From NCBI GenBank assembly GCA_036785375.1, contig JAWMAR010000005.1, positions 248,001-312,000 of the forward strand: a stretch of 64,000 nt of DNA, written 5' to 3'. Each line of letters begins with the position of its first letter. The first letter of the stretch is position 1. The notes below the pieces were generated by a model that searched no databases, was not told the DNA's origin, and was given only the letters and a program-made list of their open reading frames with translations. This stretch comes from Leucoraja ocellata. Its lineage: Eukaryota. Positions 23,536 to 64,000 of the stretch are shown here, piece by piece. A program made the position numbers and the translations under genes.

Positions 23536-24249
23536 CTGTTGACAATGGCGCATCTGCACCATGTGATAACTGTCAACTGCTGCAGAATGGTTGAGGATTC
23601 AGACAGGAATGACAAGCGTGGAGTTGGGCCGACAGGAATTCAGTCTGACTACATGTTTGGTTCAGAGAGTAAATTAACACCCATCACCGAGTCGGCTTTG
23701 AACACACATCCTTGCAATCCTGGTAACACCGAGGTGAGAAGTGAGAAGTTTTTGAGGGACCTTTAGAGGCAACTTTTTCATGCAGACAGTAGTCCATTTC
23801 CCAAAGGAGTTGCCTGAGAAAGCTACAGAATCCGATACAATTACAACTTTCAAAGAACATTTGGACAGATATTTGAATAGAAAGGGTCAAGAGGGCCAAA
23901 TACAGGTAAGTGGAATTAGCCCAGAATGACAACTTGATTAACACGGACAAGGTGGGCTTAAGGGCCTGTTTCCATGCTATATAGCTCTGTGACCAGGCCT
24001 TTAAGATCCCATGGGGTTCAAAGTTATTCGAGAACAGAGATACATACCTGTGTTTAGACACTCAACGGAACAGTTCGGGCAATGACTGGAACTGATTTGA
24101 ACTCATGCATTGAAGCACAGAAAGTGCTGTATTATCACAAGGGGTCAGGCAACATCTCTGGACAACATGAACACATGACCCTTCAAACTCATGCATTCTT
24201 CACCATTTTGCTTTGTGTAACTGGTTTATGTTTAATTTTCTTTAAACAG

Positions 24250-24260
24250 GCAGCAAATAA
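24250..24260 (+). CDS. Gene 1, candidate terminal exon 7 (G-S-K-stop), followed by a unique-sequence 3' UTR
   Basis: Strong acceptor ttaattttctttaaacag; phase matches the 23521 donor; AATAAA downstream. Confidence 0.5.
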
Positions 24261-42156: not shown

Positions 42157-42205
42157 ATGTTTGCACTGATATTCTCCACATTGACTCTGTTCCTCTGTGC
42201 AGTGG
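42157..42205 (+). CDS. VJ receptor gene 2, exon 1: signal peptide (MFALIFSTLTLFLCAV-G)
   Basis: aacATG, hydrophobic core, phase-1 G|gtaagtac donor; 3' end homologous to the gene 1 leader; in frame with the exon at 55103. Confidence 0.82.
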
Positions 42206-43059
42206 GTAAGTACAGTCCCAGGATGGGTCGCCCAGTCTGGGTTAGTTTCATCTGTTTTCAAGTTCAATTTACATATTGCAGTGATGTGTATCTACTATTT
42301 TACAGTTGAATATTTCTGTTTAAAATTGAGATGTTTTGTGTTCTTGGTTAGCTGTGAGAAGGACACTGAAGTGTACTACTCTGGGATTCCTACCAAGCAT
42401 GGATATCAATTTGTTTCACTGCTTTGTTAATCAAGGTTTAGAAGTAATCTGAGGCTGTTCTGATTCATCTCTGAGAAAATTATTAGCATGAAATATCAGA
42501 AGATAGGAAAAACATGTGCATTCGCAACCCATATCTAAAAGAAATGCATTAAATGCAAGAAAGAGTGGAGATTAAACAGGCAAATGTAATGGAGGGAAGA
42601 AAAGTAATGAGATGTGTGAAGGGGACATAATAACAGGACGAGTGTATATTTTTCATATGCCATGGAAGTGGACTGGAGCAAAACATTTCTTACTTACTAG
42701 CTTTAGGCACATTAATCTGTACAAAGTTTGTAGGTGCTCTGTGTGACCATGTGGGATTTCTCCGAGTGACAATAGACAATAGACAATAGGTGCAGGAGTA
42801 GGCCATTTGGCCCTTCGAGCCAGCACCGCCATTCGATGTGATCATGGCTAATCATCCCCAATCAGCACCCCGTTCCTGCCTACTCCCCATATCCAAAATT
42901 TTGTTCAGTCCGTAAGGTCTGAATGACAATAAATGTAATTCTAATTCTAATAATCCCCTGACTTCACTATTTTTAAGAGCCCTATCTAGCTCTCTCTTGA
43001 AAGCATCCAGAGAATCTGCCTCCACTGCCCTCTGAGGCAGAGAATTCCACTGACTCACA

Positions 43060-44479
43060 GTGTTAAAGTCCTCCCACTTCCTCCAAATACAAGGCGTAGC
43101 TATGGGCACACGCATGGGCCCCAGCTATGCCTGCCTATTTGTAGGTTACGTCGAACAATCCTTGTTCAATACATACCAGGGCCCCATCCCCAACCTCTAC
43201 CTCCGCTACATCGACGACTGCTTTGGTGCCACCTCCTGCACCCGCACACAACTGACTGACTTCATCCACTTCACCACTAATTTCCACCCGGCACTGAAAT
43301 ACACCTGGACCATCTCCGACACTTCCCTACCATTCCTTGACCTCACTATCTCCATTGCAGGTGATAGACTTCTAACCGACATACACTACAAACCCACTGA
43401 CTCCCATGGCTATCTGGACTACACTTCTTCCCACCCTGCTTCCTGTAAGGACTCCATCCCCTACTCCCAATTCCTCCGTCTACGTCGCATCTGCTCCACG
43501 GATGAGGCGTTCCACACCAGGACATCTGAAATGTCCTCACTATTCAGGGAACGGGGGTTCCCCTCCTCCACCATAAATGAGGCTCGCACCAGGGTCTCTT
43601 CCATACCCCGCAACACTGCTCTCTCTCCCCATCCCCGCACTCGCAACAAGGGCCGAGTCCCCCTAGTCCTCACCTTTCACCCCACCAGCCATCACATACA
43701 AAAAATAATCCTCCGTCAGTTTCGCCACCTCCAACGTGACCCCACTACTAGCCACATCTTCCCATCTCCCCCCATATCTGCCTTCCGCAAAGACCGCTCC
43801 CTCCATAACTCCCTTGTTAATTCTTCCCTTCCCTCTCGGTCCACCCCCTCCCCGGGCACTTTCCCTTGCGGCCGCAGCAGATGCAACACTTGTCCCTTTA
43901 CCTCCCCCCTCAACTCCTTTCAGGGACCCAAGCAATCGTTCCAGGTGCGACAGAGGTTTACCTGCATCTCTTCCAACCTCATCTATTGCGTCCGCTGCTC
44001 TAGATGTCAGCAGATCTATATCGGTGAGACCAAGCGGAGGTTGGGCGATCGTTTCGCCGAACACCTCCGCTCGGTCCGCAATAACCTAGCTGACCTCCCG
44101 GTGGCTCAGCACTTCAACTCCCCCTCCCACTCCGCCTCTGACCTCTCTGTCCTGGGTCTCCTCCATGGCCACAGCGAGCAGCACCGGAAATTGGAGGAAC
44201 AGCACCTCATATTCCGTTTGGGGAGTCTGCACCCCGGGGGCATGAACATCGACTTCTCCCAATTCTGTTAGTCCTTGCTGTCTCCTCCCCTTCCTCAGCT
44301 CCCCTGCTGTCTCCTCCCACCCTCCAGCCTTCCGGCTACTCCTCCTTTTCCCTTTCTTGTCCCCACCCACCCCCACCCCTGATCAGTCTGAAGAAGGGTT
44401 TCGGCCCGAAACGTTGCCTATTTCCTTCGCTCCATAGATGCTGCTGCACCCGCTGAGTTTCTCCAGCTTTTCTGTGTAA
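43060..44479 (+). mobile_element. 5'-truncated young Penelope-like element (RT + GIY-YIG endonuclease; ORF 43060-44271)
   Basis: GVAMGT..GPSYA, RYIDD, FLD, NLIY..C..C...YIGET..RL..RF.EH; 14-bp TSD TCCACTGACTCACA at 43046-43059 and 44480-44493 inside a minus-strand CR1. Confidence 0.95.
44388..44415 (+). ncRNA. Minimal type I hammerhead ribozyme motif in the Penelope 3' repeat
   Basis: CTGAAGA-A-GGGT(TTCG)GCCC-GAAAC-GTT: intact core, 4-bp helix II, palindromic ACGT helix III. Confidence 0.7.
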
Positions 44480-44858
44480 TCCACTGACTCACAACTGTGA
44501 GAAAAAGTGTTTCCTCGTCTCCATTCTAAATGGCTTACTCCTTATTCTTAAACTGTGGCCTCTGGTTTACCTGTTCTGTACGTGAAATCCGTCCCTGTTG
44601 CCGACGTTGACGGCTTTAGAAGCTGATTTTAAAATTACTCCAGCGCTGAACTTGTCGGGCGATTAAAAAAAAAAAAATACACAGAACGGCCGTTGGAACA
44701 ATTCTTCAGGAAAAGCTTGCAGTCCGAGAAAATATAATCCAGGACAAGGTAGGAGAAAACCGCGCTTTAACCCCCCTCCTCAAAGGTGGCAAAATCGCGC
44801 ACACAGCCAGTGGCAGAACTGCAGTGCTGCAGAAGGTAAGTATTGTAACATACCTGCA

Positions 44859-45200
44859 TTACCCTGACTCAGCATTATCCATTACTGATCCAAGGATGGT
44901 GGTATCATCAGAGAATTTAAAGATGACTTTGGAGCTGCGTCTGGCTACACAGTCACGGGTATACAGAGGGTAGAGCAGCGGTTTGAACACACAGCCTTGT
45001 GGTGCCCCTGTACTGATGGTCACTGATGGGGAGATATTGTTGCCAATACATACTGACTGAGGTCCGCCAATGGGGAAGTCTAGCAACCAGTTGAATAGGG
45101 TGGAGCAGAGACCCAGATCCCTGAGTTTGGACAGGATAATCGTGTTGAACGCTGTGCCACAGTCAATGAACAATAGCCTGACATATATGTTTGCATTAAA
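44859..45200 (-). mobile_element. Rex1/Babar-type LINE RT fragment; others near 41546-41830 (+) and 54480-54740 (-)
   Basis: [38 protein letters not shown]. Confidence 0.82.
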
Positions 45201-45519
45201 AGCCAGTGTGAAGAATATCAGATCTAATGACAAAAAGATTTTATAAATCTATTAGGAGAGAGAACATTGCCCAGGGAGAAATGTTGTCCCAATAAAGAGA
45301 TACAGGCAAAAGATTGCAGAGGCAGGAAGGATAATAACACAAAAGCCAGGAACACTCAGCCGCTCAGAGCTGCGGGTGGGGAGAGAAACCGAGTTAGTTT
45401 CAGGCAGATTAACATTCATCAGATTCAATAAGGTCAAACCCAGGCAAGATTTTCAAATAGATCATGGAAATGACAAATCATGAGAAAAAACTCTGTATTC
45501 CACAACAAAATTGATTTTA

Positions 45520-45850
45520 ACATCATCAGCATCATCATCGGCAGTCACTCGAAACGAGTATGACTGTCCTCTCCTCTCCACAGGGTCGTCTACTTGTGGG
45601 TCTGCAGATGTCGGTAGAGGCCGATCCGCGATCCACACACCTTGGTGCAACGTAGTCCATCGAACCTCCTTCTCTCTCTCCTTACAGTGCTGTCGCTTTG
45701 TCTCTGAGACACGCCGTTGTTCCATTTCGTGACGTGCAGCTCCTTCATGCATGGATGTCCTCTAAGAAAGCATGTCCAGTGCAATGTGCTCCTGGTTGCT
45801 CGATGTGATGTGGAATTTCTTCAGACTGTTTTTGATGACTTCCTAAGTGT
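45520..45850 (-). mobile_element. RTE-clade LINE 3' end
   Basis: C-terminal C..VCGSRIGLYRHLQTH followed by a (GAT)n tail. Confidence 0.75.
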
Positions 45851-46003
45851 TCTTGAATTTACAGAGTAACGAGTCATAGTCATACAGCACGGAAACAGGG
45901 CGTGTAGGAAGGAACTGCAGATGCTGGTTCAAACCAAAGATAGACACAAAATGCTGGAGTAACTCAATGGGTCAGGCAAAATCTCTGGAGAAAAAGAAGA
46001 GGT

Positions 46004-46031
46004 GACGTTTCGGGTCGAGACCCTTCTTCAG
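46004..46031 (-). ncRNA. Minimal hammerhead ribozyme motif in a solo Penelope-end repeat
   Basis: Reverse complement CTGAAGA-A-GGGT(CTCG)ACCC-GAAAC-GTC, with a GUC cleavage triplet. Confidence 0.7.
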
Positions 46032-48564
46032 ATTGAGAGTAAGGGGAAAGGGGTCACCATACAGCCATACAAATAATAAAGAGCACCCTAGAACACGATA
46101 GTCTTTATCCTACCCCCCTCCCCACATAGAAAAACTAAAGAAACCTCCAAAACATAATTTTAAAACAGACTGAAAATTAAAAAAAGATAGAAAAACAGAC
46201 AGACTGTAGGCAGGGGCTGCCATCAATGCGGCGCCCCTAGTGGCTTAATGGATAGTGGATATTGATGGTGATATGGAGAGATGTAGAACTAGGATCAGTC
46301 TAACCCATCTTTGCTGACCAAGATGCCCTAACTAAACTAGTCACATTTGCCCATGTTTGTTCACATCCCTCAAACCCTTTCCTATATGTGTTTTTCCAAA
46401 TGCCTTATAAATGTTGAATTGCACATGACTCAACCACTTCCTCTGTCAGCATGTTCCATGTACAAAACACCACCTACAAGCCTTCTAGTTCCTATTAAAT
46501 TATTCCCCTCTCACTTTAAACCTATGCTCTCTTGGTTTTGATTACCCTCCCCTGGGAAAAAAGACTGTGCTTTCATCCTATCTATGTCTCCCATGATTTT
46601 GTACACCTCAATAAGATCACCCCTCAGGAATAAGGAAATCCCCATATGGAATAAAGTCCTTGTTACCCGACTTCTCCCTATAACACAGTCTCTCGAGTCC
46701 TGGCGACCTCCTTGTAAATAATTTCTTCACTTTTTCCAGCTTAACATAAGTTATACAAAAAAAAATTATTTAGAAGAAACAAGAGTGCAGCGTAGGTTTA
46801 CTAGGTTAATTCCCGGGATAGCGGGTCTATCATATGCTGAGAGAATGGAGCAGCTGGGCTTGTATACTCTACAGTTTAGAAGGATGAGAGGCATCCTATT
46901 GGAACAAATAAGATTATTAAGGGTTTGGACACGCTAGAGGCAGGAAACATGTTCCCGATGTTGGGGGAGTCCAGAACCAGGGGCCACAGTTTAAGATTAA
47001 GGGGTAAGCCATTTAAAATGGAGACGAGGAAACTCTTTTTCTCACAGAGAATTGTGAGTGTGGAATTCTCTGCTTCAGAGGGCGGTGGAGTTCGGTTCTC
47101 TGGATACTTTCAAGAGAGAGCTAGATACTGCTCTAAAAGATAGCGGAGTCAGGGTATACGGGGAGAAGGCAGGAAAGGGGTACTGATTGGGGATGATCAG
47201 CCATGATCAAATTGAATGGTGGTGCTGGCTCAAAGGACCATATGGCCTACACCTGCACCTATTGTCTATGGTCTATTGCCTTTTTGAGGCAGTGATTCCT
47301 GTAAATTCCTTTGATGGCGGGGAGGTCAGAAGCCATGATGGACTGGGCAGCGATCACCAGTTTTTGCAATCTTCTTCACTCCTGGGTGTTTGAGTGGCCG
47401 AACCCTGATGCAACCAGTCAATATGTTCTCAACTGTATATCTGTAGAAGTTCAAGAGTTAAAATGGACTTGCAAGTTCCTTTTTCTAACTATTATTGCAG
47501 TTGTATTTAAGAAATGAGGAACACTCTTATTTCAAAACATGTTTCAAAATATGAATTGTAAAAGGCAGGTCTCTCTAGGTCCAAGCAACTTAGCTTGTAG
47601 TGCATAGCTACAAGCTAAGGATTGAGGAGCACTTCAATAACAACTCCGACCCCCGACGCATGTGGCAAGGCATGCAGGTCCTAGCAACTTTCCAGGCTGC
47701 TAGGAAAAGTTTAAACATTCTCTAAGTGTTGGGGAAATTCAGGAGAAATCGTGGCACAATATCCACCATTGCGCCCATCAAGCAGATTGTTTATTGCAGT
47801 GCAGGATAGATGTCAAGTGTCAAGAATATTTTATTGCCATATGTCCTAGATAGAACAACGTTCTTAATTTCAGCAGCACAACAAAATATGTGAACATGGT
47901 ATACTGTAAACAACATAATAAACAAGAAAAAAAAGCTTCAGCGTGTGTATATATACACATATATCTGAAGAATGATCTCAACCTGAAACATCACATCTGA
48001 AGAAGGGTCTTAACCTGAAAAATCACCCATTCCTTCTCTCCAGAGATGCTGCCTGCCCCACTGAGTTACTCCAGCTTTTTGTTTCTAAATACGCACGTAA
48101 TACAGATATATATATATATATATATCTGTATTACTAAAAGTGTGATCTTGACCACTTCCTGTTGTTCCGTATATTAATTTTAGAAAAAACGCTGCCACTT
48201 ACGCCTGTGATTTTTGGGCATCTTACACAGTCCCTCTCCGCTGTGCAGGACAAGAGGATTTTCCCCTTGTTTTTAGGAGTGCAGGATGTGTGTCAAGTGT
48301 CAAGTGTGTTTTATTGTCATATGTCATGAGATGAGTTCTGGGCAGATCAGCCATGATCATATTGAATGGTGAGGGAAGCTTGAGGGACTTGGTTAGGAAT
48401 TACCTACTTCTCTTTGTAGTGTGATCAAAACACAGTGAACCAAAATTAAAAATAATTGCAGAAGCATTAGAGGCATGATGTGGGTAAAAATATCAGCAGA
48501 GTGGGAGGGGTTGAGAACTAGCTGCTTGAGTGAAACAGGATGACGGATGCTGAGAGAATTTTTA

Positions 48565-51500
48565 AATGGAAGGATCTGTGGATTGGTTCTCCCCAGCCTC
48601 TTGCTTCTTGTGAGCTTTAGAAATGATTCCTTTGATTTGAACATAAAATACCAAATATATGAAGCTTGTAGTTAATATCAAAAATAGTAAGATTAAACGA
48701 GAACTTACCAGTTTGAAGTTTGATCTGTGTTTTATGAGGAGTTGGTAACTGTTGCGGTTGAGTAGGTGGTCCCTGTACCAAGCAGTACTTCTCCCATTTT
48801 TTGCTGCTGGACAAGTGCTGTTTTTTAGTGGATGTTCGGAGGGATGCTGACATGGTGTCGACGGTTTGTTCTGATAATTCCAGCCCCAGAAGTGGTTTAT
48901 GCAGAATCTGCAACCCAGGAGTTTGATTTTTTTCATGGCACGGGTGGCTTGTGCCCGACACTGGGTGTTAATATCTCTGGGTCATTGGGGAATACCATCG
49001 GAGTTTCAACAACCATGTCATGGAGTATTGAGAACAATGGCTGCATAGGCCAGTCGGGTACTATTAAAATACCTGAAGCAGAGTCCATTTGTATTGTGTG
49101 TAGTCCCCAACTGATGAGGCAGAAGGGAGGAAATGCATAGAAGAAGAATTTCCCCAATCCAGCGCGAACGCATCTACCGCTGCTGCCTCAGGGTCTGGTT
49201 CCCAAGCGACATACATAGGTACCTGGTGATTTAGCCAATGCAAATAAATCGATATCTGGTGTGCCATATTGCTTGATAACTTTTGTGAATTTTTTGGGGT
49301 TTAACATCCATTCGATGTTGTCATTAAATTTACGTGACCTGGTGTCTGCCACTGTATTTAGCTTACCTGGCAGGTAAGTTGCTGATAGCCAAATATGTCT
49401 TTCGACACACCATTGCCAAATTGTGTTGACCAACTTGTCGCATGATACCGATTTTATGCCGCCCATTTGGTTAATGTAGGCCACCACCGTAGTATTATCT
49501 ATTTGTAACCGTACATGCAAGTGATGCATATTTGTGCATATGCTTTTAAACCATAAAAGTCACCCAACATCTCTAGATAATTAATGCCCAGTGTAAGTGG
49601 TAACGATGACTCTGGGTTAGTCCATCTACTACTTGTGCTGGATATAGAGTTAGTTGCTCCCCAGCCTTGAGCACTGGCATTTGTTTGGATAACTAACGTA
49701 GGGTTAGTGATGATAATAGGGCTGAAACAATGCCAAATGTTTTTTGCCCACTCCTGTAGTTCTGATATTGCTTCAGTGGGTAACTTTATGACATGGTAAT
49801 AATGACCTGTATGTCGTTTTGGTGCCTGTACCTTTGCTCTTTGTAAATTTTGACAGTGCAAAGGTCCGAATCATTAAATTGTTGCATGATTGTGCCAATT
49901 CAACTGTTTTGTCTCTTGGCAATGTTACAGTCATGTAGACTGAATTAATTGTGAAGCCCAAGTAGTCCATGATTGTGGATGGCTTCAACTTAGATTTATC
50001 TGGATGTAAGACAATCCCAGGGTTTTGAATAACTGTTTGGTAGCTTATACAGCTAACATAGTCAATTCCATGGTCTTGCCTATTATTTAAGATATCATCA
50101 AGTTATGCCATGACAATATCTTTTTGTCTTCTGAATATTGCCAGAGCTGGTTTTAGTATCTTGGTGAATAATCTTGGGCTGATGTGAACCCATTGGGTAA
50201 CGCTTTAAACTGCCATAGCTGCCCCATCCAGGTAAATTTCAGGTATCTGCGATGGTCCTTGTAAATGGTCCTAAATAGTAAACATCTTTAAGATCAATGC
50301 TTGCCATGAAGTATCCTTTGGAAATTAGTTGTTTGGCAGTAACAACCGTTTCCATTTTGAAATGTATATACTTAACAAACATATTTAGTGAGGTTAAGTC
50401 AATGATGATGCGACATCCACCATTTTTTTTGGGTTTAGTGATGAATATTTGATATGAATTCCAAGGGTTCATGTTTTCCCATGATACCCTTTGTAATTAG
50501 TCTCACCAGTTCAGCTTGTCCCTCTCGTTTCCTTAACGGAGAGGGAAAATACCCTCTGGGGTGAATGTTGAACTGGTGGCAATTTTTCTAGTATGAATTG
50601 TATTTTGTATCCACTAATGCCATTGAGTATATACTGATCACTCGTGATAAACTCCCGTGCTTCTTAAAACAGGTGTAATCTCCCCGCTATTAGTATTAAG
50701 CCCATATTTTCTATATGCTGGTAGTAACCAGACCCAACTACCTCCATGGTTATGGCTATTGTTCTGTTTCCTGCCGGTCCAACGAGTCTTGCACGTTGTC
50801 TGACGTGTCGGTGATGTTGGGGGGTGGCGCATTTTCCATGGGGTCTGCTATAGGCCCTGGTCTAAAGAAGACTTCCGGGGATAGAATGCGGACCCCGAGC
50901 TTTACACCAGTCCCATATGGTAGACGTCGACTGATGGACGCGATGGGGTGCTGCTGCTTAGGAATTATTGTTTTTGGTTGCTCGTCCCGGGCCTGCCCTC
51001 ATGAGACCAAAAGTTTTTTAAAGCTTCTTCCATATCCTTCATATGCTTTGTGAGGTTTTTGCCAAAGAGGTCTGGCTCAGTGGCTGGGGTATGCACAACC
51101 CCACAAATTTTGGATTTTATGGCAGGTTTTATGATTTGTTTATGAAGATTGTGGTCATCTCCGTATTTGTCCACGGAACGAGCAAACGATGTGATGGCTG
51201 ATGTCAGGAGCTTGAGGATCCGCTGCAGTTTTCTAAGGCCTTATTGACCACCTCTCCTGTAGGGGCCTGTTGGAGAGGTGGTTAAAGCTGGCCGCTGGTT
51301 TGGCCTTTAACGACCTCTTGCACGTGGGGTTGCCACGTAGCGGTCCACCACACTTAGCAGCTCTTCCTGTTCCTGCACCCCTTGCATACTCCCGAGATCT
51401 TCAGCCATCGTCCCCTCTTCTTGACCTGCCCAGTTCTGGTCACCAAAGCTACCCTCGGGTAAGGAGGAAGCAATGGGCAGTGCACAGGGCACTGTGGAGG

Positions 51501-52024
51501 GAGTGCCTAAACTCCCCCTGCGAGAGCGCCCCTCACGAAGCGCGATTCGCTGGAGCTCCTGCTCCAGGAGCCGCTCCAGGCAGCTGTCTCTCCCTCGGGC
51601 GGGTGGAGAGACGTCCCCATCCGATAAGTCAGAAGCCACCGGCCGGATGCCTCTTCCGTGGCTTTACTTCCAGTCCGCTGCTCAGGCGCTAGCGGGCTGG
51701 GCTGGGCTCGGTGTCGGGAAAAAGCGGAGCGCCGGGTAAGCGGTCCTACCGCCTTGCTGCTGCCCCCTCCCCAGATGGAATGTTCCTCCGTGGAGTCGAG
51801 CGGGGGACAGGTTTGTCCAAGAGCCTTTCTTCTCTGCCTGAAAGCAGAAGGCTCCCTGTGAACGAAAACCCGACCTCAGGGTATTTACCTGTTGATCCGT
51901 TCTTTCACCTGTAGTGGGAGCGCCTGACTCCCGATGCGCCGCTGTTGCACTGGTGAACGTAATCCCGCGCAAGCGTGCTGAGCGGGCTCTTCACGTAGTC
52001 ACTCACGTGACTCCGAAGTAAAAT
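48565..52024 (-). mobile_element. Decayed DIRS1-type tyrosine-recombinase retrotransposon in gene 2 intron 1
   Basis: Frameshifted RT (KPKKNGGCRIIIDL, SIDLKDVY, YLGF), RNase H (IDNTTVVAYINQMGG, YLPGKLNTVAD), methyltransferase-like DLFA/YAFPPF/LIVPDW; terminus ATTTTACTTCGGAGTCACGTGAG. Confidence 0.88.
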
Positions 52025-55000
52025 TGGCAGTGTTACTGATAGTGAAGAATAATGTTTGCTGCCACTGGAGGGCAGCACTAGATTGTCCATTGATTGTGTG
52101 GCATGTGGAATTCAATCCAGAGAAGTGTGAAGTGATCGATGGACATAACATGCTGTAGTAACTCAGTGGGTCAGGCAGCATCTCTGGAGAAAAGGATAGG
52201 TGACATTTCGGGTCAAGACCCTTCTTCAGACCAACTTCAGACCTTCTTTGTGTCAGAAGAAGGGTCTCGACCTCTGTGAAATCTCCTCAAGGCATGCCTA
52301 TTTCATGGAGGTTCTCCTCTGATGGGAGTTCGGCAACACCCTTTCTCGCTGCTACTCCTCTGTGGCTGAAGAAGGGTCTCGACCTGAAACGCCACCTATT
52401 CCTTTTATCCAGAGTTGCTGAGTTACTCCAGCATTTTGTCTACCTTCGGTGTAAACCAGCATCTACAGTTCCTTCCTATACACAGTGAAGTGATAGATTT
52501 TGGGCAGGGCCAACTTGGTTAACTCCTTGTAGCCGAACCCCCTGATGGCATCTGGGCATTCTGGATCAGAGCACACCACCACTCCTTTGGGATTGGCATT
52601 AGAGAGCAACTGGACACTGGAAGATCCTGAAAAGATAAGACTATTGTTTAAAGTCATTGGTGAGTAAAGGTGACTCTGGCATGAATGATAGATTAGGATA
52701 CATAAATAATTAATTTACATATACCACCAAACGATGTTCAAAATAACTGGGATGATGCGTTAAGAAGAGAGTGGTTTGATATTGACGGATCTAAAATATA
52801 TGTCGACATATTTTCCCTCAATAAATTCCATCTTCCATAGTCTGGCCACTCAATGCCTCTGTCTGTATCTTTGTAATTTGCACGACATCCTCTGCTTCCT
52901 AATTCAGTCGTGTCTGTAAACATGGAACATCATGTGAACAAGTGTGAACATCCGGTCACTGTCTAAACTATGAACTGAGTTTCACTCGCAACTTTGCTGT
53001 CTGAACCGCTAAATGCTTCCAGGATTTTCCTTCAGATCTGATTTTGCTTTTATATATAACTCTGAATTCTCCCATTTGGTTAAAAGTGAAGATCCCTAAG
53101 GATTACCAAGGATTGCCATTTGACACACTCAGCGAATCAAGGAACTTCTCTGTCTCTTGTTTTACAAAATCACCTCATATTTTGTGTGTTCACATTTTTG
53201 GAACCTAATGAAATCCTTTGTGCAAATTAAATGGAGGCAATATCCACAAAAGTTTCATCATCATCACTGACAATGAGGGAGGAGTTGTTGTCTTCAAGCC
53301 ATATTACTGAGCTCTCTATCTCCTTCCTCTCCGTCTGTGAAAAAGACTGTGATTGCTGACAAGACTCTCAACTGTTCATGTACCAAGTCTCACATTTCTG
53401 CTCTCAATCCCTCTCCGTCCACCCAGAACAAGGATAGGGTTCCACTTGTCCTCATCTCCCACCTCTGTCAGTTCCACATTGTTAATGAGGGTTTTCCCAC
53501 AGAGTAATTGTGGCAAAGGACATTGGCTTAGAATAGCAGATTCCCACTAGTCACAGAACTCCAGCCAGAATATCTTCCTTCCACACCCCTGCGTCTTCTA
53601 TGAATAAGCCATTTCTGAATGCATATGACCAAGTAATCGTGAATTCTAGACATCTTACATTTCTGGATCAGCTTATCATGAGAAAATTATCAAAAACCTT
53701 ACTAAAATCCATGTCTACAACATCCTCTGCCTAACCTTCATCAATTAATAGTGCAACTCCTCCAGTACATTTACCTCCCTCTCAACCACACTTGAAACAT
53801 CAAAAACCGGAACATTAAGCTGCAAGTTATGTCCTGTTTGATAGCTTGATATAAATGATTATCATATCATAAGATCATGTGATAGGAGCAGAATTAGGTC
53901 ATTCAGCCCATCAAGTCTACTCCACCATTAAATCATGGCTGATCTATCTCTCCCTCCTAACCCCATTCTCCTGCCTTCTCCCCATAACATCTGACACCCG
54001 TACTAATCAATATTGTTATCTGGATGAGAAAACAGGAGAGACACTTGGGTATAAAGAGAGCAAAATACTACTTTAAATATAAATTAGGAGAGGAAAGGGG
54101 CAAGAAAAAATATCACTGACAGTCAAAATTAAGAAGCATCCCAAGGTTTGAACAATTGTATTAGAGTAAGAGGGTAACCAGGGAAAGAGTAGGAGCCAAG
54201 GAAAGTGAGGGCTGTTGCAAAGAACAATGGGGACCCGGCATGGGGGGGATTGCATTGAGGGACAGTGGGCGAACAAAGTGGGAACTTTAATTTTAGGATC
54301 CTCTTCTGCATTTGTTTGTTTTGTTTGTTCGTTCGTTCTGGTTAAGGTGCTGTGCACATGGCAGCCAGCCAACAATTGCTTGGCTTTTTCTTTTTTTTCA
54401 CTTTTAATTTCAAGTACTTGTGTACCTTGTGTGTTGTTACTGTTGGCAGAACAATTTCCCTCCGGGGATGAATAAAATGTTATCGTTTCGTATCGTAAAA
54501 CTGCTGCCAGATGTTGTGAAGTTTTGTATCATCTGCCCGACAGGAGAGGGGACAAGTAGGAATAACAGGGGAGAGAATGGTCTTTCACGATGTTGGTTGC
54601 TTTCCCCAGGCAGCGTGGAGTGTAGGGTAGAGTAATTGCCAAACTAGGCTGTGATGTAATCAATAGGATGCTTTCTGCGGTCCATGTGTAGACATTTGTA
54701 AGAGCTGTTGGAAGCATGCTAAATATCCTTAGTCTTCTTTATCTGACTCTGCAACAGAATCTTACATATACTAAATGAATGTTACTAGAACTGCCAGCTT
54801 TGTTCCTGATTTACTGCTCAGTTTAACACAGTGTGTACAGTCAACAAGCATTTACATGGAGCAGGATTTAACCTTTGATATTCAGTGTTTGTACTTTTGA
54901 GCTGTTGCTTTTACCAAAGGTATTGTTTGTAATTTCAGTGCAGAGTGAAAGAGCGAAGCTCAGGAGAAAACAAAAGAGTTTACAAATTGAGGATACATGT

Positions 55001-55102
55001 GCAGAACATTCATAAATATCCAAGAGCTTTCATGCTGCCAGTCATTTCAAATTATTTTTGTGGTCATCGTCTGTTCTGATCTTTGGTTGTTATTACCCAT
55101 AG

Positions 55103-55453
55103 GTCTAACAGCAAACACAGTCATGATCCAATCCCCAGGAGCTCTGGTGGTGCGTGAAGGTGAAACAGTGGAGATACGGTGTGTCCTGAACAGCACCAAT
55201 GTGATTAACACTGTGAACAAATTCGACGTTCACTGGTTCAACTCACGTAATGGAGGAGTCAAACTTAGTCTTTATCTCAATGGCCACATTTACAGGTCAC
55301 TGGGCTTCTCCGATCGATTTCAGCTTTCCAGGAACGTCACCAGTAACAGCTACTCACTGACCATCAGAGAGGTGAAGATTGCCGACTCTGCTGATTACAT
55401 CTGTGGCCTTTGGGGGACTTTATTTGGAAAAGGAACCAAGCTGAATGTAACCA
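55103..55453 (+). CDS. Gene 2, exon 2: germline-joined VJ domain V1, paralogue of the gene 1 V
   Basis: cccatag|GT ... ACC A|gtgagt, 351 nt, phase 1-1; DSADYICGLWGTLFGKGTKLNVT; 74/109 aligned residues identical to gene 1 V by hand count. Confidence 0.93.
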
Positions 55454-56351
55454 GTGAGTATTTAAATTGGTTCTATTTCCAATCCAAACATCATGAGGAA
55501 TCATGATGTCGTATTGTCAGTTTTACAGAGACAAACATCATTAGAAGTTCACACTGCAAAATAGAGAATGAAAATAGGCCAAATTTATTTTTTAACTGAA
55601 TAATGCAGATCACTCGTTACTGCGTTCTGAGATCAGGATGGAGAATGTAATTCGGCATTGCCAGAGAGGTACACATAGTGTGAACAGATGAATGTAAAGA
55701 AATTACAGTATAGGTAGGCTAGTTTCTTCATTTATAATCACTTTGCTTGAGTTTACTTTATTGTCACGTCTACCGAGGTACAGTGAAAAGCTTTTGTTGT
55801 CTGCTAACCAGTCAACGGAAAGACAATACATGATTACAATCGTGCCATTCACAGTTTATGCACAGTCACTATTAGTTGCACCATCTGCCACACTGAGATC
55901 AATAACTCATTGGTCAGCATGGGCTCAGTGGACTGAAGGACCTGTTTCCATGCTGCATCTCTACACTAAAGTGAACTAACATTACCACCTCAATGATCTA
56001 TCTGTACTATTCCCATACCCTCTTATTCCTCCAATATACAGAGATCTGCTTATCTCTGTGTAGAAGGCAACCAAGGACTAAATAAACGACTAAACAAAGC
56101 TAAATGAAAAATGAAATCCCCATTGTGAGGCAACACCGGAGGGAGAGAAAGAGAAAGAGAGAGTGAAAGATAATCGTGAACAGTTGCAATCAGCTGCAAT
56201 CATGATTTTAATATCAGATACTAACCAAGTTAGCATCACTTTTACATGAGGTTATCTAATGACAAAGGATGAATGTATTTTAAGTTGAAACACATGAAGT
56301 ATTTAGCAACTCCAACATTAGTGTTCATCTGTTGATATTTTCCCTTTCAAG

Positions 56352-56696
56352 TTGCAAATCCTCCGATCCTGATCCAATCCCCGAGGCTGGAGCGTGTCAC
56401 TGAGGGTCACACGGCACGGTTACGGTGCTCCATGGAGAACGCTGAAGTGGGAAACACTGACGTCCACTGGTACCGAGAACTACCCGGGCTGGACATGGAG
56501 TGGGTTTTAACACACGAGGCAGGAGGCAGCGTACGAAGGAGACCCGGCTTCACTGAGCGGTTCCAGCCGTCCAAAGACGCCTCCAACAGCAGCTTCATCC
56601 TGACGGTCACAAACGTGACGCTCAATGACTCTGCCGTCTATTACTGCACAGTGTGGGGAGATATCAGAGGGAATGGAACCCAGCTCAGCGTAGCCA
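56352..56696 (+). CDS. Gene 2, exon 3: second germline-joined VJ domain V2, with an IgL/TCR-gamma-like framework
   Basis: ccctttcaag|TT ... GCC A|gtgagt, 345 nt, phase 1-1; LIQSP, LRC, VHWYRELPG, MEWVL, DSAVYYCTVWGDIRGNGTQLSVA. Confidence 0.92.
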
Positions 56697-57849
56697 GTGA
56701 GTACAAATTATATTTGGTTTTATTTGCCTATGTGTAACTATATTGGGTATAATTCACTTCCCTTGAATTGGCACATGTACCGGGAGTACTGAAAGAGAAA
56801 GAGTAAGGAGATCGTACTGGAGCCCTGATTCTGGAGACCAAAACATTGTGGCCCCTCACTAATGGAGTGAGCACTGATATGGTAACTGATGTCAGATCTG
56901 CGTTGTGGGAAATAAATTTCAATGTGCAGTGTGTTCTTCATTGTAGAGAAAACTGGAAATAGTGTTCAGTGCTCAGTGTAATAGCAGGGCACTGCTCACA
57001 GCTGTTTGAGTTAAGGTACAGGAGAGCAGAACTGCAACTTGTCATGGCTTTAGATTAACCAATGCTGCCTCCTTATTTCAATGGTTCAATAGTTCTTTAT
57101 TTGTCATATATGCATCTGGGCAGTGAAATTATTTTTGCATATATTACACTTGCTGGCACTGCCATGTTTTGGCGTCATGATCATTCAAAGTGCAACGTCC
57201 GGTCAGCCCACAGCTCGTTGTACTGGAGTAGTTCCAACAAACCGACATCCCTCTCCTCTCCTCGCCCGGCCATCGTTGTGTCCTGGGGGTGCCTCCAGCA
57301 GACTATCTGGAGGAGATGGAGACATTTCCCTGGTTCAACCTCGCACCGGCCCTTGCTCTTTGTGTCTGACATCTCCAGCTTTCTCCCGGTCATGCCAACC
57401 GATGAGCCTTTTGACGGGTTCCCAGTCCCGCCGACCGATGAACCTTCGGGCTTGTTTTCAACCAGGAATCACTGATACTTGAACCACTCACAGAGCAGAG
57501 GCAACAACAACAACAACAACTACGCTGTCACTGGATCCAAGGCCAGGGCTCTGGAACTGGCTGAGAAGAAACAGGTTACACGTTGATCACCTGTGTTCAT
57601 GCCCTCCCTCAGGCTGACAGTTCATTGTTGTCTGGATCTGAGTCATTGCTCATCTGCATTGTGTTGATGCAGGCCCCCTAATCCATGTTAAATAGTGCGA
57701 AGCACGGTTGAAATTCCCCCTCAATATAATCTCCATGTTCCAATGAAGTAGATAACTCATTGAACCATTGGCAGCAAAGGAAAGATAAGAATCCAACACA
57801 AAGGCAGAAGGGGGTACTGTCCTGTGCACAGCTGCCCAGCCTGCAGCTG

Positions 57850-58672
57850 TCTGTCTCTTCATCTTTATTTTTTATTTTAGTTAGTTAAGTGTTTTGTTTG
57901 GAGGTCTAGACTTTTTTATGTGGGAGATGGGGTGGGTGGGGGGGGGGGGGGGGGGACTACCTTTCAGGGTCCCTACCTGGTCGGAGAGGCAGCTTTTCTC
58001 CGGGCTGCAGCCTCGACCCGTCATCGCGGCCTACCAGCGGGCCTGGAGCGGCGTTTCCTGTCGGGGACCGCCCAGAACCAATGCTTCGGCGGCGGCACAG
58101 CGCTGGAGCGCTATCGCGGAGTGGGTGATGCCTTGCCCGGGTCACCGCGCTGGAGCTCCGGTGAGCTGAGACCACCGGGTAAAACATCGCGGAGCTGCGG
58201 GACTGTGGAGCGGCCAGCTGCGGGCGGCGGCGCTGAACTTTACAATGGGAGCCTGGGATCTCTAGATGAGATCGCCAGTTGTGGAGCTCCAACCGGCGCG
58301 GCCTTGTTGGCTTCAGAAGCCGCGGCCTCCAGTGCGGAAGCGGCTGTTCCAGGGTTCCCAAGCCGCTGGGAGGACTCTCCCGATGCCGGAGCAACATCAC
58401 CCGGCGAGAACGGCCTGGAACATCGGGCCTCCGTAGAGGCAACTGTGGAGGCCTCAATGGGCCCGACAATGGGTGAACTGGGGTTGGGGACTGGACTTTG
58501 TGCCTTCCCTCATGGTGGGAGCCATTGTGGGGGGATGTTCTTTGTGTTTAAGACTCTTATTGGTGTTATGTCTGTATTCTTTTTTTGTGTGCTGCAAAAT
58601 GGCAAAAAGCATTTCACTTCACTACACCTGGGTGTATGTGAATGTGACTAATAAAATACCTTTGATACCATT
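57850..58672 (+). repeat. Unclassified GC-rich interspersed repeat
   Basis: CpG-rich island within an AT-rich intron, ending in AATAAA plus a short tandem tail; overlapping ORFs have no domain motifs. Confidence 0.5.
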
Positions 58673-58999
58673 GAAGAGGGTCAACGTGGATGTATGAAAT
58701 AGACATCATGGTTGAGGAATATTTTAAAGCTCACATTGTTAGATGTTTGTAACTAGCAAAGTAGGGTTGGGTTTTTCAATGAGCCATACGGAGACAGTAG
58801 CTGTAGATGAGATTGACCATTATTCATCACAAGCAGACACATAGATGGAAGAATCTCCTGGAGGAACTAGAATTAGCAGCAGGTATTCAAGCTGAGAGGC
58901 TGTGACTAGTGATTGGTGGTGCAGTGTTTGGTGCTGGGACACTCACTGTTCACAATCGAGGATGAGGAGATCAAGTATATATATATATATGTTCACATA

Positions 59000-59845
59000 G
59001 TATGAAAGATACATCTTCTAGATGCACTGGGACGCATCCTCAATAATGTGACCTGGGGACATCGGGTGTTTCAAGTCTCACAACATCAGGCACCCTCGCC
59101 AAGGCGTCCCAGCCAGGGTTGATCAGGTCCCAACTTGCGTCCAAGCAGCAACCGCCCACGGATCAGCCCTCTTAATCCAAAGCCACCTAGTGGCTTTCTC
59201 TGCGGCTGCGCTTGCGGATTGAATGGTCCTCTTCTTTGCCAGCCCCGTAAAGCCCAACTGGTTGAGGACTTTCAGAGTGAGCGTCCTGCAAAGCCTCTAC
59301 AGCCCACCTCTATGGGATCATAGTATGTCTTCCAGCCTCTGTCCTGGCATATCTCCACCAGTTCCTGGTACTTTGCACGTATCATCTCGTTAGCCTCTTC
59401 AATACGCTCTTCCCAGGGCACTGTCAGCTCCAGAATGAACAGCTGTTTTGTCACTTCGGAGGTGATGATCATGTCTGGCCGGAGTGATGTTGCTGTGATG
59501 TGCTGTGGAAATTTCAGCTGTTTGCCCAGATCGACATGCAGCTGCCAGTCAGTGGCTGTGTAGAGGAGGCCCATCCATGTTTTTGGTTGTGGTCGAGGCT
59601 TCTCTCCAGCTTTGACAAATGTGATTGATTTCTATGGAGCGTTGTGGTGTTTGCTGTTACCAATGGCAGTGGCTATGCTCGCAGCAACCACCTTGAGCAC
59701 CGGCTCATGGCGCAGCCAATAGCGACCTTCCCCAAGGGACTTTGGACAGCTGACGAGGAGATGTTCTAATGATCCTCTGCCTGAGCCCCACCGTCCTGTT
59801 CTCACACTCTTCCTCCACACCTGCTCGGACCTCTTCCTGAGCCAT
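59000..59845 (-). mobile_element. 3' fragment of a HERO-like non-LTR retrotransposon with a restriction-like endonuclease
   Basis: SLEHLLVSC..GRYWLRH, LRPDM..ELTVPWEERIEEANE..RAKY, PIEVGCRGF (PD-D/E-xK type motifs). Confidence 0.85.
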
Positions 59846-59958
59846 GAACAACAGTAACATTCCGACCATCACCAATGTCTCCATCAATGACACTGCTGTC
59901 TACAACTGCAGTGTGTGGAGTTACATCTATGGAGCAGGGTCCCAGCTCAATGTAACTG
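59846..59958 (+). pseudogene. Gene 2 relic of a third VJ exon (NNSNIPTITNVSINDTAVYNCSVWSYIYGAGSQLNVT), 5' part lost at a LINE junction
   Basis: E-F-G strands and an intact phase-1 donor G|gtaagt; YYC degraded to YNC; directly abuts the HERO-like fragment; no acceptor or 5' half found. Confidence 0.82.
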
Positions 59959-60411
59959 GTAAGTCATTGTTTGCCTACACTGACGATAACAGCAGCTTAT
60001 ACTTCAACCTTCACGCAATGACTCACCGACACATGGAAACTCTGTGACCACTCCCAGTAAAACAGAGAGTAGGGAAGGTATCCTTGGCGTGTAAAGTGCA
60101 ACAGCTAGGAAATAGAAAAGTGTGTGAAAGGACGAGTACAAGGAAACTAAAATCAAAAGTGTAAATAGTCTCCGCAAATGGTTTGTGAATGAAAAAGGAT
60201 TATTCTTTGCGTTTCAGTTGTCAGAGATGGAAGATATTACCAACTAATAGCAGAAAGTCAAATAGTCATACAGTGTGGAAACATGCTCTTCTGCCCAACT
60301 TGCCCACACCGGCCAACATGTCCCAACTACACTAGTCCCACCTGCCTGTGTTTGGCCCATATCCCTCCTGAAACAAATCAGAATAAGGAGAGAAAGAGGA
60401 TAACTTGAGTT

Positions 60412-61990
60412 ATTTTACTTTGGAGTCACGTGAGTGACTACGTGAAGAGCCCGCCAGCGCGTCATTACGTCTAACGCATGGCGCACGACTGGCTGGCAGG
60501 CGCGTCGCTCCTCCAGCGGTAAGTTTCGAAACCTGAAGGTAAGTTTCAAACTTATTTTTCAGGTTGTGCTTATTACTTGCAGGAATCTCTTTCACAGAGT
60601 TCCTGCTGGATGACGTTCCGGGGTCTAAATCCTGTCTCGTCAGGGAAACCCAGCTACGGAGACCGCAGGAATCCTGGCTCCGCAGGGAGAAACCCGGCTT
60701 GAGGAAACCCGGCTACGGAGACCGCAGGGAATCCCGGCTCCGTGGGGGGTACCCGGCTCGCAGGCCGGTTGACTCGGACGAGTCCGGCCGGGAGGGTTCA
60801 CCTCCTGCTGTGGGGAACGTCTTCGGACGTCTTTCCCGGATGGAGAATCTCATGGAAAAGATGCTCCACCATGATATACTCCAAGGAACGGAGTCATATC
60901 AGCGCGGGTCTCGGGGGTCTGCGGCAGCACCTGGTGCAGGGCTGCATTATATCTCCCTCTTTGAGGAGGGGAGCGTAGGCAGTCAGTTTTGGGCTGACTC
61001 GTAGTTCGGTGGTATGTCTGGGGAACATTCCACGGCACGCCAGCTGCGTGAAGTAAAAAGGAGGGTTCCCCTCCATGGTCCTTATCCAGGTGGAGCATGG
61101 ATGCGTCCACAGGGCGTTCATCCCACTGAGGAGATGGTCCATCCTGATGTGGTCCGTGGACGGGGCCATATCAGCGCATATCTTATCGGGGACCTGCAGC
61201 AGCGTCTGTTGCAGGGCTGCTTACAAATCTCCCTCTCTGTGGAGGGGAGTGCGAGGGGTCAGTGTGTGACTGACTACAAACTCGGACGTATGTTTGTGAA
61301 ACATACTAGAGTGCATGCATGAGGTTCAAGAATCCTGTTATGGCATCAAGGGTTACAATATCCACGCAAACGGAGGAGCCGCTGCAAGGAAGAGTTGGCT
61401 TCCAGCCTAGCAGAAAATCCGGGGGGCGAGGGGGTGCAGAATTTCCCCTCACATTACAAGCTTGGTAAGCATCAGTGACCTCACATCACATCATTACAGG
61501 AACAAAGTGTCGCTATCCGGGGAGACTATGGATGGCGAGGCCAGCGATGTCCAGCCGCCAAATCTTCTCCTTGGAGAAGACCTAGCCAAACGGGTAAAAA
61601 ACCTGGATGAGGAAGTAAAGCTGTCGGACTAGTCAAGGTACCTACGATGAGCAAAAGCCTCACCGTTTTGGCGACAACACCCCTTCACCTCCATCGGCAG
61701 TAAGTGGTTCACTGAAGCTGGTGGCAGCTTGAAAGCTGATTCTCTGGGCAGATGTCTTTTAGTCCAATGCCCAAGCCGGCCCTGAGGGAAAATGTGCAAT
61801 CCACGCACCCCAGCAGTCCTATCCTCCAATTCAAGGAAGGAATTAAAACCTGAGGATGGAAACAGAATCCGCATCAGGGGCCTTTGGGCTTACCATAAGA
61901 CCACTGGTAACCATGTGGGTCTGGTTCTTTCCGAAACATGGTGTGTGTGGATGAGTTACGAGTTGGTAATAGATTACACTTGTTTTTGCA
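60412..61990 (+). mobile_element. 5' fragment of a second DIRS-type element (gag-like region); right end approximate
   Basis: First 43 bp match the terminus of the 48565-52024 element at 42/43; decayed gag-like sequence follows. Confidence 0.75.
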
Positions 61991-63718: not shown

Positions 63719-64000
63719 TCCCTTCCCACCGTCCAGGGACACAAATAGCCTTTCCAGGTTAAGCAATGAATGACTTGCACTTTTTCCAAACGGATGTACA
63801 GCATTTGGTGTTCTCTGCGTGGTCTCTTCCACATGGAGGAAATTAAACATAGTTGACACAAAGTGCTGGAGTAACTCAGTGGGTCAGGCAGCATTTCTGG
63901 TGAAAAAAGATGGGTCAGATCAGAAACGTTTTTCAGACAGTGTAACAGTGCAGGGTGTAAACATGGGTTCTAACACAAAAACGTCACCCATCCTTTTTAT
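63719..64000 (+). repeat. Paralogous copy of the 20521-20807 intron block, in gene 2
   Basis: Shares idiosyncratic substitutions and the insertion junction with 20521-20807. Confidence 0.85.

Follow-up and report, generated by a model that had tools for sequence, protein, structure and literature searches.

The window, i.e., the 64,000 nucleotides of Leucoraja ocellata DNA at positions 248,001 to 312,000 of contig JAWMAR010000005.1 (hereafter C5), carries two members of a receptor gene family, the second of which continues beyond its end. Their exons are listed below in window positions, except where C5 coordinates are given.

14298..14349, + strand: gene 1 leader exon, of a different leader type
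16307..16669, + strand: the single V1-type VJ exon of gene 1 (363 nt, phase 1-1)
17101..17234, + strand: second V1-type exon of gene 1, a dead 3′ fragment with an internal stop and without a donor
21436..24260, + strand: gene 1 TM exon (21436-21570) and tail with ITAM (21736-21809, 23347-23388, 23479-23521 and from 24250)
42157..42205, + strand: exon for the first part of the gene 2 split leader (ATG at 42157, 49 nt, phase-1 GT donor)
55103..55453, + strand: gene 2 V1, germline-joined VJ, membrane-distal, FGxG kept, fast-evolving (351 nt)
56352..56696, + strand: gene 2 V2, germline-joined VJ, conserved, J Phe replaced (345 nt)
59841..59958, + strand: V3-subtype relic of gene 2 (last 118 of 348 nt, donor intact)
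59959..64000, + strand: gene 2 intron, running past the window end; the gene carries on outside the window
C5:312573-312707, + strand: gene 2 TM exon, uncharged, 573 nt beyond the window end
C5:314243-314316, 317417-317458, 317549-317591 and from 322938, + strand: gene 2 tail exons

On C5, gene 2 reads as an open model of 349 aa in the order leader-V1-V2-TM-ITAM with canonical splice sites, and all of these exons, from the leader to the tail, are open in both contig copies (C5 and C76), the splice sites having been checked for the C5 model. The original prediction of a leader about 12.9 kb upstream of two intact phase 1-1 VJ exons and a relic third was confirmed in its coordinates and splice sites: the leader-to-V1 gap is 12,897 nt, and V1 and V2 are both open and phase 1-1, with AG acceptors and GT donors. 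Both match the Pfam V-set family (V1, E 1.7e-12; V2, E 2.6e-16) and have a J-like G strand that runs continuous with V; the predicted V2 motifs WYR..PG..EW, YYCTVW and RGNG are all present, RGNG yielding an N-G-T sequon. In the tail, a YEN motif is accompanied by an ITAM (YxxL-x7-YxxL) whose coding sequence a phase-0 intron interrupts. Separate transcripts for V1 and V2, which the original prediction had held up against itself, were not borne out, as the skate RefSeq models P0012 and P0028 open with the gene 2 leader and join it to V1 and V2; gene structure and these models together suggest that leader, V1, V2, TM and tail form one transcript. At the RNA level, a contig of presumed RNA origin agrees almost perfectly with the TM exon over the whole exon length. 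Among the joints listed, no read or contig crossed L-V1, V1-V2 or V2-TM in four runs mapped on C5:303001-313000, where the signal came mostly from intronic repeats, and V1 and V2 had approximately zero depth in three raw RNA runs filed under another organism label.

The 118 nt of the V3 relic, with the intron behind them, are 95–97% identical over 150 nt to the intact V3 of genes 4 and 5, and in both contig copies the first ~230 nt (the 5′ part) have been swapped for repeat DNA. A terminal V2 lies dead in the C76 copy and was taken from C5 by a ~11.5-kb deletion. Judging from these remnants, the gene 2 ectodomain is reduced from V1-V2-V3-V2; the V3 relic was thus rightly recognised at the outset, but the count of one lost domain was wrong, two having gone, with C76 keeping the dead terminal V2. 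Between them, the C5 and C76 copies show domain loss under way within one gene. The leader is 93–94% identical to the leaders of genes 3–5 (93.9% to gene 5), while against the gene 1 leader there was no blastn match and a global identity of ~56% (55.8%). Hence the leader that had been called paralogous is real, but no paralogy to the leader of gene 1 can be recognised. Similarly, V1 had been taken for the counterpart of the gene 1 V, which holds for the subtype (64% aa identity) but not for the closest kinship, which lies with genes 4 and 5, both inhibitory (83–85% aa to their V1); V1 identity is 93.2% to gene 5 vs 76% to gene 1. The TM and tail exons of gene 1, by contrast, are 88–100% identical to those of gene 2, and the gene 2 TM is 45.8% identical to the gene 5 TM. 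On these identities gene 2 is a mosaic, with an inhibitory-neighbour-like leader and V1 and a gene-1-like ITAM tail. This mosaic nature goes beyond what had been claimed for the locus, as does the pairing of ITAM with ITIM/ITSM members in the family.

Six genes are linked, with 1, 2, 3, 6, 4 and 2 V exons in genes 1–6, and 123 homologous protein models have 1–9 V domains, in agreement with the proposal that ectodomain length varies by the number of VJ exons. Genes 1–3 have ITAM tails, genes 4–5 have ITIM and ITSM, and the sixth is a long-stalk gene; the tail exons and the cluster with its opposite tails are present in both contig copies. Five of the genes span at most 280 kb, with V1 aa identities of 81–91% among genes 2–5 and 64–71% for gene 1. 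The cluster neighbours a nicotinic receptor alpha gene and a FAK-family gene; Clusterin and KCNQ were not found on the contigs carrying it, and a TCR-alpha/delta-like V array is located on another contig. In gene 6, V0-V2 are carried on a very long N-glycan-rich stalk.

Homologues were found in 23 named cartilaginous fishes, database searches returned no named homologue outside this group, and the family dates back to the chimaera-elasmobranch split (P0111, P0292). The 123 models, which are database predictions that include isoforms, fragments and possibly some fused neighbouring genes, comprise 46 with ITIM/ITSM, 24 with ITAM, 25 with another TM arrangement and 28 without TM. V1-V2-TM-ITAM is the most frequent activating layout in other species, and in Heptranchias one ITIM and one ITAM model have an identical V1 (possibly because a model fuses neighbouring genes). 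Pfam V-set was the top family in the orthologue models scanned, several homologues are automatically named SHPS-1-like in RefSeq, and the literature searched contained no description of the family, which is one of unnamed paired receptors, the paired-receptor kind itself being already known. The J Phe/Tyr is retained in 67/70 V1, 53/57 V3 and 39/197 V2 domains, and the distance from Cys to the J Phe position is 6 residues in 323/325 scored family domains, as against 8 or 10 in all 34 scored type I light chains. A G-strand sequon occurs in 121/197 V2 and 29/70 V1 domains; its candidacy as a V2-specific dimer block is weakened, since it is common to V1 too. The fold predicted for the little-skate orthologue contains a TM helix and three V domains modelled with confidence, its tail being disordered, and a V1-V2 dimer prediction for the same protein scored 0.00, which speaks neither for nor against packing.

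The proposed distal V1-type binding domain on V2-type spacers gains support because pN/pS is high in V1 and low in V2. The ratio was 2.16 for V1 (codon bootstrap 1.20–4.50, 8 exons) and 0.55 for V2 (codon bootstrap 0.33–0.92, 18 exons), from a set without gene 1 V1 (its length differs), both V0, a frameshifted V3 and a broken V2, and with few synonymous sites, non-independent pairs and gene conversion able to reduce pS; in the V1 loops, whose borders were set after the sequences had been inspected, it rose to 3.35. Between its two copies, gene 2 V1 shows 21.5 non-synonymous vs 0.5 synonymous differences. As some shark members start with a V2-type N-terminal domain, binding by V1 and spacing by V2 is not universal. 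A V1 tree of 40 rows sorted by lineage (7 changes, the minimum) and not by tail (16 changes, shuffled mean 13.6), and 19 of the 19 V1 domains from ITAM genes were nearer to an ITIM-gene V1 of their own lineage than to the V1 of any ITAM gene from another lineage. As tree and distances indicate, V1 is evolving in concert within lineages across ITIM and ITAM genes.

RSS-flanked V and J segments, the mark of rearranging antigen receptors, were not found in gene 2. The consensus RSS nonamer is absent across the whole 64 kb, and a loose RSS scan of 54.9–60.1 kb, which recovered RSS at 4/4 rearranging V loci and 0/2 germline-joined light-chain loci, gave a single match inside an intronic CAA repeat. 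A CACAGTG heptamer within V2 (56647) was rejected as an RSS, having no nonamer and not being kept in sharks. An exact octamer was absent within 400 nt of four leaders, and equally from the scanned stretch of a type I control. The original prediction also allowed that downstream C1 exons might expose a conventional germline-joined IgL cluster; TM and tail exons were found instead, and no C1 exon was detected in C5:248-572 kb (324 kb) by a C1 HMM run on 9,989 six-frame ORFs, the best cluster score being E 0.33. Two IgL C exons used as positive controls were the only matches (E 1e-58 and 4e-43), and this absence was judged by the local HMM, separately from a genome-wide C1-set search.

We consider it likely, with a probability of about 0.82, that gene 2 encodes an activating member of a set of cartilaginous-fish paired immune receptors, its leader and two joined-VJ exons lying here and its TM and ITAM beyond the window. 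The V1 loops would contact ligand, V2 and V3 are predicted to be mostly stalk modules, and their symmetric exons could be freely gained or lost, which would set the reach. ITAMs are phosphorylated by Src-family kinases and then recruit Syk/ZAP70, and ligand binding by gene 2 would be expected to trigger the same steps. Genes 4 and 5, being inhibitory, would detect a host ligand and signal via SHP-1/2, whereas activating copies like gene 2 may have arisen when an inhibitory-type leader and V stack were joined or converted onto an ITAM tail, possibly trapping microbes that exploit the inhibitory receptor.

It is an unlikely alternative that the receptors serve self- or allo-recognition and adhesion (SIRP-alpha/CD47-like or homotypic), V1 following a polymorphic host ligand and not microbes. 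Tandem-V stalks with ITIM/ITSM tails fit cell-cell contact, and the gene 6 stalk protein could serve as counter-ligand; the marked allelic divergence of V1 is compatible with either driver. Against this reading, every lineage shows repeated copying of V1 from inhibitory to activating genes or back, a pattern in paired receptors usually put down to pathogen pressure. That gene 2 is a decaying duplicate, losing exons one by one with its intact V exons unused, seems very unlikely: the truncated V3 in both copies, the broken or deleted terminal V2, retroelements in the first intron and the RNA runs without V1 and V2 depth would all suit decay, but the open exons of both copies, the V1 differences unlike a neutral ratio and the prevalence of its layout elsewhere do not. 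Least probable by far, and refuted by the missing C1 and the TM/ITAM exons that follow, is a light-chain reading in which V1 and V2, orphan or clustered, would be germline-joined genes with separate transcripts. Skate type I and all type II light-chain genes are germline-joined (PMC2192082 and PMC4279169, each in part), and V2 of gene 2 is 45–51% identical to type I V. A light-chain gene has one VJ and no TM or cytoplasmic exons, whereas at least two V exons per leader (a single one serves both here), a TM and four tail exons were found, and among the matches listed, genuine type I and II clusters are found on other contigs and have their C exons 1–2 kb downstream.

The earlier comparison of V2 with IgL and TCR-gamma stands for the light chain. 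A reciprocal genome search, trees and a per-domain score (1.84 billion representatives) all placed the sigma-2/type I light chain as the nearest antigen-receptor V, and it was the best non-family match of 46/46 family domains. TCR-gamma, with 0/46, was dropped as nearest relative although no formal rejection was obtained, and the TCR-gamma-like V segments of skate, which have RSS, group in a separate clade. In two trees, which left out UrIg, UrIg2 and NKp30, a starred branch (96/86; 96/97) unites the family with type I/sigma-2 and a coelacanth light chain; it sits within the rearranging receptors, a long way from nectin-, TIM- and pIgR-like V. Other origins were not rejected by AU tests, which used 100 columns and had low power (p 0.13, 0.20, 0.083, 0.050), a tree holding the family outside all rearranging receptors having p-AU 0.13. 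Searching the PDB by sequence and by fold turned up engineered antibody constructs, which do not discriminate origins, and the ESM Atlas gave generic V-set clusters only.

That all V subtypes go back to a single germline-joined VJ exon in the lineage of the sigma-2 light chain is the least certain step of our reading, and we put it at roughly even odds. With the same balance of belief, a RAG-rejoined sigma-2 VJ exon may have lost its C exon before the chimaera-shark split, multiplied as a symmetric unit and joined ITAM/ITIM tails. Lee et al. 2000 proposed that rejoined Ig genes yield such an outcome (PMC2193156, in part); skate, coelacanth, gar and turtle have sigma-2 in germline-joined form (PMC2192082 and PMC5985310, in part), and horned shark has it split (PMC2193156, in part). 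That the V domains are instead relics of an unsplit pre-RAG VJ exon, as in UrIg, UrIg2 and NKp30, with a superficial likeness to sigma-2, is unlikely. The unrejected outside placement, the fixed, shorter junction, the age of the family and a locus away from the type I light-chain clusters are in keeping with it, but the starred branch inside rearranging receptors, the uniform light-chain matches and the want of named homologues beyond cartilaginous fish speak against it. Whether single-exon VJ genes are pre-RAG relics or products of germline rejoining is a standing question, made testable here via trees, structures and synteny; the family leans to the second answer and warns that a non-rearranging VJ gene alone need not be a primordial relic. 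If sigma-2 descent is true, a whole innate paired-receptor family sprang from adaptive immunity, which inverts the usual account, with germline selection and conversion replacing V(D)J recombination in diversifying the tip and exon gain and loss tuning stack height.

Among known systems, sigma-2 (sigma-cart, NS5, type I) shares the joined VJ exon and split leader, whereas the family has no C1, a tandem V stack, a TM with ITAM or ITIM/ITSM tail, a shorter, fixed junction and a different locus. SIRPs (alpha, beta, gamma) are likewise paired, with a J-like V, a polymorphic distal domain and an ITIM and ITSM-like tail, but they are V-C1-C1, and their activating form uses a charged (basic) TM with DAP12 and no ITAM of its own; the family has V domains only (no C1 found), its own ITAM and, in gene 2, an uncharged TM. 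PRARP has a VJ-C1 ectodomain and orthology to chicken genes. Hagfish APAR/NICIR are non-rearranging V(J) receptors with activating and inhibitory forms and birth-and-death evolution, traits also reported for NITRs (PMC7916673, in part), which have one or two Ig domains, as opposed to 1–9 J-bearing V domains in the family (at most 6 per linked skate gene); two rows that we labelled NITR-like fell outside the family clade on long branches. According to parts of PMC12227049, UrIg and UrIg2 are non-rearranging shark VJ-C1n genes with single-exon VJ and split leader, whose domain number is altered by duplication and conversion of exon pairs. On that account they repeat C1 and lie in the MHC or Ig/TCR complex (IgH/TCR-alpha-delta), whereas the family repeats the VJ exon without C1, has signalling tails and lies elsewhere; UrIg2 was rejected as the same gene, no C1 following VJ here. 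Tandem-V receptors of the pIgR/CD300/skate MDIR type, NARTCR and marsupial TCR-mu also have V domains in series, but NARTCR and TCR-mu rearrange and contain C1 domains, unlike the family (in part after PMC12227049). No lineage with antibodies is older than the cartilaginous fish, whose innate leukocyte receptors have been little charted; the outcome here is a concrete, conserved ITAM/ITIM pair family with a selected binding tip, concealed in databases by automatic names. The pIgR-like V from the skate genome branches far from the family, and TCR-mu (7k0x) had the top query TM-score among the listed Foldseek matches, 0.35.

Gene 2 is real and intact, and the window carries the following parts of it:

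42157-42205, + strand: gene 2 leader exon (49 nt, phase 1)
55103-55453, + strand: gene 2 V1 exon (open, phase 1-1, AG/GT bounds; Pfam V-set E 1.7e-12)
56352-56696, + strand: gene 2 V2 exon (open, phase 1-1, AG/GT bounds; Pfam V-set E 2.6e-16)
59841-59958, + strand: V3-subtype relic of gene 2 (3' third of the exon)

The open frames, splice bounds and Pfam V-set matches bear out the original prediction of a leader and two intact phase 1-1 VJ exons, and the relic third V domain that it also described is confirmed: the 3' third of an exon of V3 subtype survives, and across 150 nt it shares 95-97% identity with the intact V3 of genes 4 and 5. Both V1 and V2 run uninterrupted from V into the J-like strand, and neither was found to be flanked by an RSS. 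A search between leader and V1 yielded no additional V exon, and the long first intron is normal for the cluster (about 12 kb in gene 3, 26 kb in gene 4 and 23 kb in gene 5). The sequence that has replaced the front of the V3 relic provides a pyrimidine tract with a weak acceptor, GAG, use of which would yield an in-frame exon of 117 nt (window 59842-59958); this putative exon would encode half a domain of 39 aa, which could lengthen the stalk. Retroelements lie around and inside gene 2 (window 37600-41055, minus strand; 43054-44268, plus; 48936-50496, minus; 59275-59631, minus), including an LTR-retrotransposon pol frame of 1,152 codons, a Penelope-like fragment with reverse transcriptase and GIY-YIG, and further pieces that match nothing in Pfam and resemble DIRS elements and restriction endonucleases.

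Using blastn with gene 1 exons, we located four tail exons of gene 2 and its TM exon, which begins 573 nt beyond the window end (C5:312573-312707). Joined at canonical splice sites, the exons give an open 349-aa model that reads leader, V1, V2, short stalk, uncharged TM, YEN motif and ITAM (YxxL-x7-YxxL, split by a phase-0 intron). We infer a single gene 2 transcript because of the splice phase, the open frames in both copies and the RefSeq models of three other skates. Depth over the V exons was about zero in three raw RNA runs. In run X1 (presumed RNA), one contig aligns to V2 over 185 nt with 5 differences; another, 668 nt long, covers the TM exon almost end to end, with its remainder mapping elsewhere. 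The latter resembles a spliced family transcript, although gene 2 need not be its source. Downstream C1 exons of a conventional IgL cluster would have refuted the original prediction. None appeared: when 9,989 ORFs drawn from C5:248-572 kb, C5:850-910 kb and C76:7.86-7.94 Mb (C76 being the contig with the other copy of the cluster) were scanned with an HMM made from light-chain C domains, the two controls were the sole matches. Given this result and the TM and ITAM tail exons, we rejected a light-chain cluster identity for gene 2.

Gene content and order are the same on both contigs, which also share a flanking nicotinic-receptor exon upstream and exons of the FAK family downstream; identity between them is 92-98% over most gene 2 blocks, from which we infer that C76 holds a second haplotype. 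Proteins of the window are up to 96% identical to little-skate models. The linked genes and the upstream flank on C5 are:

window 4611-6068: large exon of a neuronal nicotinic acetylcholine receptor alpha gene (best PDB match alpha-4)
gene 1: one V, ITAM
gene 2: two V, ITAM
gene 3, minus strand: V1-V2-V2, ITAM
gene 4: V1-V2-V3-V2-V3-V2, ITIM plus ITSM
gene 5: V1-V2-V3-V2, ITIM plus ITSM
gene 6, 330 kb beyond gene 5: V0-V2, stalk in a 1,988-codon frame, TM

The nicotinic receptor gene, upstream of the cluster, is presumably alpha-2, judging by its residues and its FAK-family neighbour (which ends at C5:850 kb), and the flanks are consistent with the CHRNA2-PTK2B neighbourhood. The second V3 of gene 4 (G000:C5:451873-452235) is frameshifted on C5 by an extra T near its start and open on C76, and thus represents either a null exon or a sequencing slip. 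At a position that is Gly in genes 2 and 3 and in ray homologues, the gene 1 TM (window 21436-21570) carries Glu on both contigs, and this residue may allow pairing with another chain. In gene 6 (G000:C5:865184-897415, loci L028-L031; C76:8539457-8544472), V0 and V2 continue without a donor into the 1,988-codon frame, in which Asn, Gly and Ser abound and N-glycan sequons are numerous, and a TM exon follows. Another skate has an orthologue of 1,999 aa (P0035), and the gene 6 product is possibly a very long stalked receptor or counter-ligand. Just past gene 6 lies a rhodopsin-family GPCR frame (L032, G000:C5:909388-910000, minus strand).

The C76 copy of gene 2 retains an additional V2 at its end, disrupted by a stop, a small deletion and an insertion of 1.66 kb, whereas C5 has lost this exon through a deletion of ~11.5 kb; the ancestral gene 2 was therefore V1-V2-V3-V2, a layout shared with gene 5 and many shark and ray models. 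The present gene is a mosaic, its leader (93.9%) and V1 (93.2%) matching gene 5 and its TM and tail exons being 88-100% identical to those of gene 1.

Two database searches returned 44 and 118 homologous proteins (123 combined), and all named homologues come from cartilaginous fish (23 species, including the chimaera Callorhinchus) and bear automatic names only. Searches of full texts, mostly from open-access journals, found no description of the family, although supplementary gene tables could include its members. A motif script, which undercounts some domains and includes isoforms and fragments, assigned the 123 models 1-9 V domains each and sorted their tails into 46 with ITIM/ITSM, 24 with ITAM, 25 with another TM and 28 without TM. 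The number of V domains varies, as originally proposed, both among homologues and across the several stack sizes of the linked genes, and the symmetric exons let a stack grow or shrink with the frame intact. By hand count, at least three V domains occur in 30/46 inhibitory versus 7/24 activating models, a trend matched in the Leucoraja ocellata cluster. A precomputed C1-set match is listed for three homologue models; the two inspected, P0004 and P0053, contain V repeats only. The chimaera model P0292 combines a TM with three V domains. Some divergent shark proteins (P0192, P0291, P0174, P0179) fall in the same V clade and carry different tails, among them a single V with Tyr motifs and two-domain forms, which suggests more subfamilies than the skate cluster displays.

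The V subtypes differ in pN/pS, at 2.16 for V1 (codon bootstrap 1.20-4.50; 8 equal-length exons; loops 3.35, framework 1.47), 0.55 for V2 (0.33-0.92; 18 exons) and 0.59 for V3 (0.21-3.08; 5 exons), values that involve non-independent pairs, few silent sites and loops delimited with sequences already seen. Between the two copies of gene 2, V1 differs at 21.5 replacement versus 0.5 silent sites. In a V1 tree of 40 rows, lineage needs 7 changes, the fewest possible, and tail type 16 (shuffled mean 13.6), and 19/19 activating V1 are closer to a same-lineage inhibitory V1 than to any foreign activating V1. The J Phe/Tyr, a residue of the VL-VH interface, is kept in 39/197 V2 versus 67/70 V1 and 53/57 V3. 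The AlphaFold2 model of the little-skate orthologue P0028 shows three V domains (block pLDDT 82-95) and a TM helix, with the tail disordered; its pTM of 0.52 means that the relative packing of the domains is not fixed by the model.

Judged from sequence, the gene 2 product is most likely a type I membrane receptor that binds ligand with its V1 loops. ITAM phosphorylation by Src-family kinases is established as the step that recruits Syk/ZAP70, and by analogy the gene 2 ITAM would act likewise. The inhibitory genes 4 and 5 would sense host ligand via SHP-1/2, and activating genes appear to borrow the V1 of inhibitory genes repeatedly, which fits activating forms as counter-receptors against microbes exploiting the inhibitory ones. 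Stack height would alter reach, and short activators perhaps fit within close cell contacts. The likeness to SIRP- or NITR-type paired receptors lies in this mode of working; their defining features were not found here, and the family resembles such pairs but is distinct from both.

Outside the family, V2 finds its closest counterpart in the genome in a joined VJ exon (45%) that has a C exon 1 kb behind and is itself 90% identical to a little-skate type I light chain; the reverse search gave V2 96 bits versus 87 for type II light chains. A family profile run against 1.84 billion representatives gave 3,826 matches, and among the best 150 the top non-family scores per domain came from type I light chains (84-123 bits) and, at 92 bits, from a light chain of the coelacanth, with other database V domains at no more than 64 bits and skate type II up to 80 among the matches listed. 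Type I is equated with sigma-2/sigma-cart in PMC5985310. The family, type I and the coelacanth chain were joined at 96/86 (107 rows, mixture model) and at 96/97 (62 rows, including 7 skate TCR-gamma-like V) in trees of V regions without J, with group labels other than type I assigned by us and UrIg, NKp30, PRARP, SIRP and TCR-beta left out. AU tests rejected 0/4 alternative placements: the family outside all rearranging receptors (p 0.13), with TCR-gamma (0.20) or with lambda/kappa (0.050), and all light chains grouped without it (0.083). The junction has one fixed length in 323/325 scored domains, which is what descent from one founder exon predicts, whether that exon was joined or had never been split.

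The assembly yielded only three type I light-chain VJ exons (G000:C94:6734315, C94:6842705, C230:195609). For little skate, PMC2192082 reports at least 89 clusters, and the much lower number here reflects either a difference between the species or incomplete recovery by the search or assembly. At L086 (G000:C175:1140000-1142700), a single-exon VJ-like domain is followed by a C1 exon and is unrelated to the receptor family in the trees.
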